From a virus (taxonomy: Duplodnaviria; Heunggongvirae; Uroviricota; Caudoviricetes), in IMG/VR virus record IMGVR_UViG_2744054909_000002, positions 1 to 40,201 of that record: 40,201 nucleotides of DNA. One strand, written 5' to 3'. The notes beneath the pieces are model-generated. The model was given only the letters and a program-made list of their open reading frames with translations, did no database searches and had not been told where the DNA came from. Below, one piece after another: positions 21,697-22,506 of this stretch (position 1 is its first letter; every line of letters begins with the position of its first letter). Position numbers and translations under genes: made by a program.

Positions 21697-21731
21697 CCAA
21701 TAAAAAAGCCACCAGCGGATGCCAGTGGCTT
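21697..21731 (-). terminator. Rho-independent terminator (minus strand) just upstream of the terminase small subunit gene
   Basis: Stem aagccac/gtggctt (21706-21712 / 21725-21731) followed on the minus strand by UUUUUUAUU. Confidence 0.5.
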
Positions 21732-21964
21732 GGGTGTGGTAATCAGGAATGGATTCGGACCATTGAGCCAGAAGATATTGGTCGTCTGCACCATCCTCCA
21801 ACTTATAGCAGCGTCACGCTTCGTCCGGACCGGTATTACCCGACACTCGCGCACCTGATTAATGAGTTTCGACATTATCACAGGAACTCGGTGAATGCCT
21901 GTTGTAAAATCTAAACTAATAGCAACTAACCGGAGGTGGTGATGAAATCATCACGCGAAAATAA

Positions 21965-22420
21965 TCAATCTTGCAACTTGTTAACTACGCTTCGCAGATC
22001 ATTTTTAAGCTGCTTAGTTATGATTTCAATATTAGTATCGAACCAACCCGCATCCTGATCAGAAAACTCATAACCAGGTGAAATGAGCCCAAGCATACCT
22101 TTCTTAGACTCTAACGGGGAACGACCTTCCACCCCTTTCGTTATGGCAAGCACCTGATACGGAAGATAACTTAAATCCTCTTCGGTCATGCCTGCTCTAG
22201 CCGCCACATCAGCAACACATGTCATGATTATGCCACTACAAACTTTTGCCTCAGTGATTGCAGTGCTAATAATAACAAGGCTAATTCTGTCTAAATCCTT
22301 CTGGTCAATATAATTTCCTGCCATAGAATTTCTGAATGTAAGCGACATAACTTCCATCCAGTGAGCTATATACTTTCTTACCTTTGCAGAGGCAATATTG
22401 CGCCTGAATTGCTTAAACAT
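21965..22420 (-). CDS. Hypothetical accessory protein (151 aa) between lysis cassette and terminase
   Basis: AT-rich codon usage; GGAG SD 6 nt before ATG at 22420; candidate promoter TTGACT-15-TAAAAT upstream; terminator downstream. Confidence 0.55.
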   Translation of the reverse strand: MFKQFRRNIASAKVRKYIAHWMEVMSLTFRNSMAGNYIDQKDLDRISLVIISTAITEAKVCSGIIMTCVADVAARAGMTEEDLSYLPYQVLAITKGVEGRSPLESKKGMLGLISPGYEFSDQDAGWFDTNIEIITKQLKNDLRSVVNKLQD

Positions 22421-22506
22421 TAAATTCTCCATTTTATGAGAACTAATATTTTAACCTAAAGACAACAAAGTCAAAAGCCCAGTGATCACCGCTGTTAAAA
22501 CCCCTT

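Follow-up and report, generated by a model that had tools for sequence, protein, structure and literature searches.

The 40,201-nucleotide (nt) stretch of DNA analysed here (IMG/VR record IMGVR_UViG_2744054909_000002, called the window) is a lambdoid prophage of E. coli inserted adjoining kch. Between its lysis and packaging genes it carries two small units: ORF151, an open reading frame (ORF) of 151 codons, and downstream of it on the same strand a gene for an RNA resembling transfer RNA (tRNA). Comparison with relatives shows that both exist, that both are under selection and that the two cassettes are independent of each other. On the comparative evidence given below, 21860..21737 is a conserved structured RNA gene which comprises the top half of a tRNA and has no decoding arm. 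A previous sequence-only reading had described an accessory gene followed by about 230 base pairs (bp) of non-coding sequence; the gene is a real and unusual orphan cargo gene, and the adjacent sequence, which was misread, holds a member of an uncatalogued family of anticodon-less tRNA-like RNAs, carried by temperate phages of enterobacteria and supported by covariation. The reading that we favour for the region, at slightly better than an even chance, is a two-cassette cargo region in the late operon, composed of the moron protein ORF151 and a non-decoding tRNA mimic, with promoters, processing and functions that we infer.

By megablast, positions 21700-21907 are 93% identical to an unannotated stretch of phage mEp390 lying between gp53 and gp54. 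The alignment of the window, mEp390 and Cedecea copies reads GGTTCGAATCC and then CCTGATTACCA, the 5' AATCAGG being complementary to CCTGATT, and the T-stems of these copies are compensatory (AAUGG/CCAUU, AAGGG/CCCUU and GUGGG/CCCAC). Further relatives were collected by pattern scans of IMG/VR, of the GTDB species representatives and of JGI metagenomes. RNAalifold on 22 sequences gave a cloverleaf-like fold, on which a covariance model was based; with this model the presumed non-coding spacer of the window scores 142 bits (E 4e-33).

The window RNA is 124 nt long and has a 7-bp acceptor stem (AAUCAGG/CCUGAUU) followed by A73 and an encoded CCA. A single nucleotide, U8, separates the acceptor stem from the 4-bp D-stem, which begins at nucleotide 9, is 95-98% paired and has its register set by a G:C to U:A double change in one copy (L138). 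The D-loop starts AG..UG and holds an inserted hairpin, the equivalence to G18G19 not being fixed by sequence. The 3-bp base of this hairpin covaries (G:C in 16 sequences, C:G in 13), and its top is variable, ending in GUAAUA-type loops among type A copies and in GNRA-capped stems among those of type B; a short variant of 110 nt (L022) is without the insert and has a normal, class II-like D-loop (AGAUGGCUUAAA). The linker that follows, ACGCUGCUAUA, is 11 nt long and leads into a 14-bp hairpin, which has a conserved bulge of 3 nt and a 7-nt loop, GCAGACG; after two unpaired nucleotides comes the 5-bp T-stem, with the T-loop UUCGAAU in the relatives. Looked at as a T-arm (5-bp stem, 7-nt loop of the type U54-U55-C56-R-A), this last element is 99-100% paired and contains three covarying pairs.

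The structure was evaluated against slid controls, in which the 3' partners were moved by one to three columns. For 41 distinct sequences, in alignments that were fitted to the model and thus favour structure somewhat, 96.0% of cells were paired as against 36-43% in the slid controls, and 15 of 27 pairs showed double changes, four of them in the acceptor stem, where 93.7% of cells were paired and four pairs covary. The covariation score of this set was 0.388 (0.03-0.10 when slid) and was reached by none of 500 shuffles. With the full hand-refined structure on 33 distinct sequences the values were 93.3% paired cells (32-43% when slid), double changes at 20 of 37 pairs and a score of 0.244 (0.04-0.08 when slid), again reached by none of 500 shuffles. 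Despite the model-fitted alignments the conclusion on structure is robust, because of the MAFFT/RNAalifold result and the many independent pair types. An apparently invariant acceptor stem, considered as an identity signal, was an ascertainment artefact, since the first two search patterns each fixed one of its strands; a scan without a fixed acceptor stem retrieved the compensated variants AGUUGGG/CCCAGCU and NGUCAGG/CCUGACA.

An anticodon arm can be formed by a single copy (L071, CGCAG-CUACAAG-CUGCG), and when sought by eye in mEp390, L100 and L146 only two to four of its five pairs form. The loop of the long hairpin, GCAGACG, has a C instead of U (U33) at its second position. As there is no anticodon arm, the RNA cannot decode. 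The linker (CGCUGC) is complementary to the hairpin loop (GCAGACG), with U:A, A:U, C:G and G:C found at one position. An H-type pseudoknot between the two was rejected, since the 4-nt connector cannot span the 14-bp stem, although complementarity and covariation are real; alternative or intermolecular pairing is a possible explanation of the covarying bases.

Standard tools pass over this gene. ARAGORN found neither tRNA nor transfer-messenger RNA (tmRNA) in the window, and no tRNA in mEp390 or Cedecea, and Rfam 15 gave no match in the window at E<=1. The best Rfam scores on canonical copies are below threshold, 23.8 against 29 bits for tRNA and 20.3 against 47 bits for tmRNA, the latter at the 3' end only. 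In the literature we found no description of a tRNA-like RNA in lambdoid phages. Protein-coding readings of 21700-21910 were also considered and rejected: there are long open frames on both strands, without proper starts, and the substitutions follow base-pairing. The suggestion that 21740-21965 contains the cos/pac site gains no support, as the element occurs with different terminases and its substitutions follow the RNA pairing.

The late genes run on the minus strand in the order holin, lysozyme, Rz/Rz1, ORF151, a 276-bp gap, terS, terL and portal. The features of the cargo slot and its borders are:

23564..23022, minus strand: lysozyme gene.
22507..23025, minus strand: Rz-type i-spanin gene (DUF2514), upstream limit of the cargo slot; Pfam DUF2514 at E 1e-43, PHROG 312 Rz-like spanin, RefSeq coordinates mapped from the identical prophage L002.
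22823..22569, minus strand: Rz1 o-spanin gene, inside Rz, with lipobox LLASC.
22445..22474, minus strand: candidate sigma-70 promoter of ORF151 from a consensus scan, TTGACT with AATATT (18 nt) or TAAAAT (15 nt).
22427..22430, minus strand: Shine-Dalgarno sequence GGAG, 6 nt ahead of the ATG; similar G-runs are equally placed in homologues.
21965..22420, minus strand: ORF151, a 151-amino acid orphan all-alpha protein, predicted to be cytoplasmic (WP_021571192.1).
21881..21901, minus strand: imperfect inverted repeat CAGGCATTCACCGAGTTCCTG, conserved alongside the RNA cassette in mEp390, in Cedecea and at many loci of IMG/VR.
21874..21882, minus strand: putative extended -10 element TGTGATAAT, conserved as CCTGTGATAATG in most type A and Cedecea-type copies.
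21737..21860, minus strand: tRNA-like RNA gene, 124 nt (covariance model R1, RNAalifold cloverleaf, covariation).
21697..21731, minus strand: intrinsic terminator AAGCCACTGGCATCCGCTGGTGGCTTTTTTATT, from a terminator scan.
20690..21688, minus strand: terS (Terminase_2), downstream limit of the cargo slot; Pfam PF03592 at E 5e-28, PHROG 51 at E 5e-73.

Upstream of the RNA the inverted repeat is perfect in relatives (CAGGCA-N9-TGCCTG) and imperfect in the window. It runs up to the -10 element with some overlap, and may serve as an operator or form a hairpin. The predicted extended -10 ends 13 nt before the 5' end of the mature RNA; in other subtypes the corresponding position is taken by TATACT or TATGAT. 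In the type B-prime copies only 6-7 nt separate the -10 from nucleotide 1, a spacing which suggests that the type B-prime RNA is a primary transcript; these copies encode no CCA and are directly followed by a terminator. In the window the terminator reported by the sequence-only reading at 21731..21697 was found again by the scan, as a hairpin at 21731..21706 (11 bp, six of them G-C) plus a T-run. It starts 5 nt after the CCA of the RNA, and its T-run reaches into the ribosome-binding site of terS (GGAG).

The same hairpin stands ahead of HNH/terS in other E. coli prophages without either cargo gene. At locus L145 a separate terminator closes the ORF151-family gene ahead of the RNA cassette, its hairpin almost matching the one behind the RNA, and at L151 the terminator of the ORF151-family gene is directly followed by terS, with no RNA gene. 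This distribution indicates that the cargo slot ends at the terminator, ahead of which cassettes are inserted. Near-identical hairpins (AAGCCACT...GGTGGCTTTTTTATTG) were seen just before the packaging genes in prophages that differ elsewhere, namely the window (21697..21731), L003 (3001-3040), L145 (7110-7145) and L151 (6510-6545), and such recurrent hairpins could be a recombination hotspot for the exchange of cargo cassettes. What had been read as one accessory gene with its own promoter and terminator is partly upheld: a moron-like gene does lie in the cargo slot, while the slot holds two cassettes, of which the RNA gene owns the spacer and the terminator.

The RNA gene is present in 61 loci with distinct surroundings, typically 0.7-3.6 kb after the lysozyme gene, and in 15 of these loci it lies 35-49 nt ahead of a terS start of the window type. 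The gene upstream of it differs widely among loci, which fits an autonomous cassette. The region of the two cassettes is 100% identical in EcE.CRE.COL and EC17CM13, and only two of 5,426 complete E. coli genomes carry the stretch; BLAST searches with the L022 and type B-prime variants gave no match in E. coli genomes or phage records. Degenerate copies of the RNA include three with a 15-nt deletion in the T-arm region (L011, L125 and L132) and one without the 5' half (L168).

Three side observations concern the surroundings of RNA copies. At L142 (10087-11558) the 3' part of an ORF151-family gene and two-thirds of the RNA gene, on its 5' side, have given way to an IS3-family element; the cassettes were therefore neighbours in one more lineage and can disappear together. 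A GC-rich inverted repeat with (T)GATAAT immediately behind it occurs three times in the cargo region of the E. coli AVS0969 prophage (L011, 1780-1830, 2080-2130 and 2490-2535), and the same motif directly follows the RNA gene in L114, where a terminator would otherwise stand; cargo cassettes in this slot may use it repeatedly as a promoter or boundary. In L022 a sub-threshold match to a type III hammerhead ribozyme (2021-2073; 31.3 against 48.5 bits, E 0.003) lies about 370 nt upstream of the short RNA.

The second cassette, ORF151, is the one that the sequence-only reading had recognised, and the limits of the gene given there hold: RefSeq annotates the same 151 codons, as a hypothetical protein (WP_021571192.1), the GGAG Shine-Dalgarno sequence is found at 22430..22427, and Rz (23025..22507) and terS (21688..20690) flank the gene as described. 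The start is at 22420 and not at the in-frame ATG at 22432, because all family members begin with MFK and two of four aligned loci lack the upstream ATG. The AT-rich codon usage noted earlier is also borne out. GC content is 0.37-0.43 over 21900-22500 and 0.52-0.59 in the flanks; ORF151 itself has GC 0.41 and GC at third codon positions (GC3) 0.39, compared with 0.55 and 0.60 for terS. As for the proposed promoter TTGACT-15-TAAAAT, both hexamers are present, TTGACT lying at 22474..22469, and the consensus scan pairs it instead with AATATT at 18-nt spacing. The -35/-10 region is kept in the Cedecea homologue (TTGGCA ... TAAAATATT). The AT-rich stretch contains five promoter-like sites against 2.3 +/- 1.5 in shuffles, about two standard deviations above, and since this excess is modest the promoter stays a candidate. 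With regard to what is usual for a moron, ORF151 thus has a base composition foreign to the flanking phage genes and a promoter-like site, and the first terminator in the window comes after the RNA gene. As no terminator stands between ORF151 and the RNA in the window, a transcript from the ORF151 promoter would cross the RNA too and stop at 21731..21697.

On substitution patterns ORF151 is under purifying selection. The ratio of nonsynonymous to synonymous substitution rates (dN/dS) is 0.10 against the 81%-identical homologue of Cedecea neteri (dS 1.09, dN 0.11) and 0.11 against the 65%-identical homologue of L007. The family is rare: a word-indexed search of 5.8 billion proteins retrieved four clusters, an exhaustive HMMER scan of 1.84 billion representatives five real clusters and one low-complexity false match, and a profile search 13; clustered at 90% identity, the family thus comprises only about 13 groups. 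Named sources of relatives are Cedecea neteri and Enterobacter sp., and there is no homologue among 50,697 phage records. The gene had been described as of unknown family, and ORF151 and its relatives indeed have no match in Pfam, PHROGs, PADLOC or NCBIfam. Strong homology to a packaging protein or to an HNH-type accessory of the terminase, which would have spoken against an accessory gene, was not found in the profile searches, nor was any to HNH or terminase-associated families in general.

Every prophage-borne relative of ORF151 directly follows the lysis cassette, whatever the lysis and packaging types. In the window the neighbours are DUF2514 on the lysis side and Terminase_2 on the packaging side, and in Cedecea they are DUF2570/LysC and then a lambda-type (Nu1/GpA) terminase region with GpA, gpW and portal. 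The relative P0006 follows Phage_lysis in a truncated prophage adjoining purB-hflD-mnmA, P0007 is upstream of an HNH gene, and P0008 (L151) lies between a GH19 lysin module and Terminase_2. L145 carries two family copies. At L007 (7141-9249; also L008, L009 and L010) an islet beside yccA and tRNA-Ser(UGA) contains two intact, diverged tandem paralogues (175 and 159 amino acids, the true start probably at MFK) together with a mutator-family transposase and an 84-amino acid ORF, and no other phage genes. The family is therefore seen with at least three unrelated lysis cassettes, with three terminase types and in islets without lysis or packaging genes. These varied contexts exclude a helper role specific to one terminase or one lysis cassette, and retention of the gene in a decayed islet and a truncated prophage favours, and fits, a host-beneficial cargo gene. 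Purifying selection, foreign composition and a constant position after lysis genes beside unrelated terminases all agree with the accessory gene of the sequence-only reading.

With an alignment of 14 sequences AlphaFold predicts an eight-helix bundle at a predicted local distance difference test score (pLDDT) of 93.8 and a predicted template modelling score of 0.89; with five sequences the pLDDT was 73. Conservation falls mainly on hydrophobic positions and on a WF(D/E)TN motif, with no evident catalytic constellation among them. No signal peptide or convincing membrane helix is predicted, and a membrane location was rejected, the one borderline segment (Kyte-Doolittle 1.68) corresponding to two buried helices in the model. 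Foldseek found no relative in the BFVD viral structure set. The predicted fold is shared with the Cbp3/ubiquinol-cytochrome c chaperone domain (PDB 6rwt; PF03981), at 6-8% identity; Pfam PF03981 had no match at E<=1 for 14 family members, nor at E<=0.1 for the query. Cbp3 is a chaperone for a hydrophobic membrane protein and is linked to the respiratory chain, while the prophage context of ORF151 has no such link. We therefore treat ORF151 as a soluble protein of Cbp3-like fold that binds partners or acts as a scaffold, not as a demonstrated member of the Cbp3 family. In a PDB profile search AvrBs3/PthA scored E 5e-6, a score summed over the many repeats of the target, of which no single stretch passes alone. 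Residues 85-132 (about 22168..22025, LPYQVLAITKGVEGRSPLESKKGMLGLI) resemble one transcription activator-like (TAL) effector repeat, LTPDQVVAIASxxGGKQALETVQRLLPVL. ORF151 as a TAL-effector-type repeat protein was rejected, as there is this one unit only and no tandem repeats of 33-35 residues; the likeness has probably arisen by convergence of a helix-loop-helix unit.

A functional link between ORF151 and the RNA was considered and rejected. The window, Cedecea and L145 have the two side by side, but the RNA is absent beside P0006, P0007, P0008 (L151) and the L007 paralogues. The link is also opposed by the many other upstream neighbours of the RNA and by the terminator between both genes in L145.

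Outside the slot, a 138-amino acid gene on the opposite strand (24063..24479, plus strand), between the Q antiterminator gene and the holin gene, matches PHROG 1244 (function not assigned) at E 1.5e-24 and nothing in Pfam, PADLOC or NCBIfam. The C-terminal part of its product has two Cys-x-x-Cys pairs, and it looks like a further cargo gene of the late region. The Q-type antitermination gene itself (24676..25581, minus strand) is a RefSeq pseudogene with an internal stop in the identical prophage (L002 17066-17875), and in the window its frame, counted from a TTG, meets no stop for 301 codons. With a defective Q, read-through of the late operon would fail and ORF151 and the RNA would be expressed solely from the promoters of their own cassettes.

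In the two-cassette reading that we favour, ORF151 would be an AT-rich, horizontally acquired gene for a small soluble helical protein whose action consists in binding a partner. In the lysogen a sigma-70-type promoter of its own would drive the gene, and late in infection Q-dependent read-through would do so; ORF151 would thus be a moron which most plausibly provides a host benefit or a phage-conflict factor rather than a packaging or lysis component. The RNA cassette would consist of the extended -10 promoter, the 124-nt tRNA-like RNA and the intrinsic terminator. Since the RNA keeps the acceptor stem, A73-CCA, T-arm and D-stem, it is expected to be cut by RNase P and trimmed to the CCA end as tRNAs are, and as a tRNA mimic it would occupy or titrate some factor that binds tRNA, such as an immune nuclease or a toxin directed at tRNA. 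The shared terminator would keep lysogen-time transcription of both cassettes out of terS.

A number of observations weigh against this reading. A sizeable subgroup of copies (L184-L200) runs without an encoded CCA straight into the terminator, so that the CCA end is not essential to the role of the family. The RNA is rare, with two to three copies in 5,426 complete E. coli genomes and one in 50,697 phage records. The window copy has C for the otherwise invariant U55 of the T-loop (UCCGAAU in the window lineage, UUCGAAU in every other copy) and may be impaired; it is also one base short in the D-loop in comparison with all relatives, and the UCCGAAU allele occurs in eight IMG/VR loci and both E. 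coli genomes, all of them near-identical prophages. Single-sequence folding energy is ordinary (z -0.75 and -1.0), which is likewise typical of tRNAs. For ORF151, the promoter is a consensus match only, whose conservation in Cedecea is no higher than that of the adjoining coding sequence, and the Cbp3 likeness is confined to the level of the fold, given the low identity and the failure of every family member to match PF03981.

A decoy for an immune nuclease becomes a concrete candidate through the recent demonstration that class II tRNA-Tyr is cut in its variable loop by Septu and by retron-Eco7, against which phage tRNA-Tyr acts as supplement or decoy (PMC13096335). A bolder form of the two-cassette reading, which we consider speculative and rather doubtful, is that the RNA is a dedicated, self-transcribed, anticodon-less tRNA mimic of temperate phages of Enterobacteriaceae, which would constitute a new RNA family of three or more structural subtypes and would neutralise a host or rival factor recognising the tRNA elbow, acceptor or long arm. 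Its targets might be, for example, PtuAB/Septu-type or retron-associated nucleases cutting class II tRNAs, or toxins that modify the 3' end of tRNAs. The co-resident ORF151, an orphan with the Cbp3 fold, could then add to the slot a further conflict factor, independent of the RNA. If true, the mimic would be an RNA-based anti-defence or immunity element. Phage tRNAs are seen partly as countermeasures to tRNA-cutting immune systems, and a non-decoding top half would be a pure decoy or regulator, a strategy unlike the supply of spare tRNAs.

Among the alternatives, the one that survives best, possible in our estimate and still well short of probable, is that the RNA is a cis or trans regulatory or processing element of the late transcript and not a decoy. 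It might be an RNase P-cut punctuation which splits the lysis/packaging mRNA or stabilises the terS message, or an RNase P-processed antisense RNA like C4 or CI. The position directly upstream of terS in many loci, with the terminator T-run abutting the terS ribosome-binding site, would suit this reading, even though the gene downstream of the RNA is often not terS and a pure processing signal would not need the promoter-like element. It is also favoured by the type B-prime copies, predicted to be primary transcripts ending at the terminator like ordinary small RNAs, and by the linker/hairpin-loop complementarity with its compensatory changes, which recalls the paired a and b elements of C4; yet antisense targets of the loop in the window are at chance level (14 matches against 9.9 +/- 3.5 expected). 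The conservation of the elements of an L-shaped tRNA (T-loop, D-stem and A73) also speaks against it.

Aminoacylation of the RNA, perhaps by LeuRS, SerRS or TyrRS, with a use as donor or rescue factor outside decoding (tmRNA-like or as a transferase substrate), appears improbable. Most copies do have an encoded A73-CCA and an intact acceptor/T-arm minihelix, the D-loop of L022 is class II-like, a long arm precedes the T-arm throughout the family, and there are the sub-threshold Rfam tRNA and tmRNA matches on canonical copies. These scores are, however, far under the Rfam gathering thresholds, no G3:U70, tag reading frame or tmRNA-like pseudoknot set is present, and the type B-prime copies have a mismatched 1:72 pair besides lacking CCA. 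The CCA-less subgroup disfavours aminoacylation as a common function.

We regard as similarly unlikely a reading of ORF151 as an accessory of the neighbouring modules, with the protein as a lysis-timing regulator (a holin or spanin binder) or a terS helper and the 230-bp stretch as a pac/cos site. The family always stands immediately after the spanin genes and the Cbp3 fold is that of a chaperone for a hydrophobic membrane protein, both of which favour this reading. Against it stand the three or more unrelated lysis cassettes, the three terminase types, the islets without lysis or packaging genes and the lack of a homologue in 50,697 phage genomes, and also a stretch that evolves as a structured RNA upstream of different genes and terminase families. 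Least credible of all is a decaying tRNA gene or att-site remnant without present function: the degenerate copies (L011, L125, L132, L168 and the IS3-cut L142) and the T-loop mutation of the window would fit it, but compensatory changes occur in every helix among the 41 distinct sequences, promoter and terminator are conserved alongside the RNA, the position in the phage genome is constant and away from the integrase, full 5' and 3' halves are present, and the anticodon arm is missing in all subtypes and not randomly eroded.

Missed by tRNA finders and absent from Rfam, the RNA family goes unannotated in phages and prophages including mEp390. As a 124-nt RNA in an inducible E. coli prophage it is a cheap and well-defined experimental object, and ORF151, a strongly constrained orphan with a confident predicted fold in one phage cargo slot, is a candidate for defence and counter-defence screens.

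Of the known systems, ORF151 can be compared with lambdoid morons in the post-Rz slot such as bor of lambda, which lies on the opposite strand to the late operon and encodes a lipoprotein. Shared with bor-like morons are the position after Rz/Rz1, the foreign composition, a putative promoter of its own and a terminator before the next module; ORF151 differs in being in late-operon orientation, predicted to be cytoplasmic, unrelated and of a far rarer family. The RNA shares with class II (Leu/Ser/Tyr) tRNAs (RF00005) the 7-bp acceptor stem with A73 and encoded CCA, the 5-bp T-stem with its GGUUCGAAUCC T-loop, the long extra arm just before the T-arm, and the 4-bp D-stem followed by A14 R15 and GG, and with the ends of E. 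coli tRNA operons a terminator few nucleotides after the CCA. Unlike tRNAs it has an 11-nt linker in place of the anticodon stem-loop, a D-loop hairpin, a 14-bp extra arm with a 3-nt bulge, and a length of 124-129 nt (110 nt in L022). In common with the tRNA-like domain of tmRNA (RF00023) it has an acceptor/T-arm module without anticodon joined to non-tRNA structure; it is about one third of the size of tmRNA, has U3:A70 and not G3:U70, and is without reading frame and without PK1-PK4. Other non-decoding RNAs with tRNA-like modules are YrlA (bacterial Y-RNA-like) and the T4 stable RNAs species 1 and 2; YrlA differs from the phage RNA in the internal position of its module and in its linkage to Rsr/Rtc genes. 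The C4 RNA of P1/P7 and the CI RNA of P4 are phage RNAs matured by RNase P, with tRNA-like ends and internal complementary elements, of about 77-79 nt, located in immunity regions and with mapped antisense targets. In comparison with these, the RNA described here is larger, lies in the late region and keeps a canonical T-loop and D-stem.

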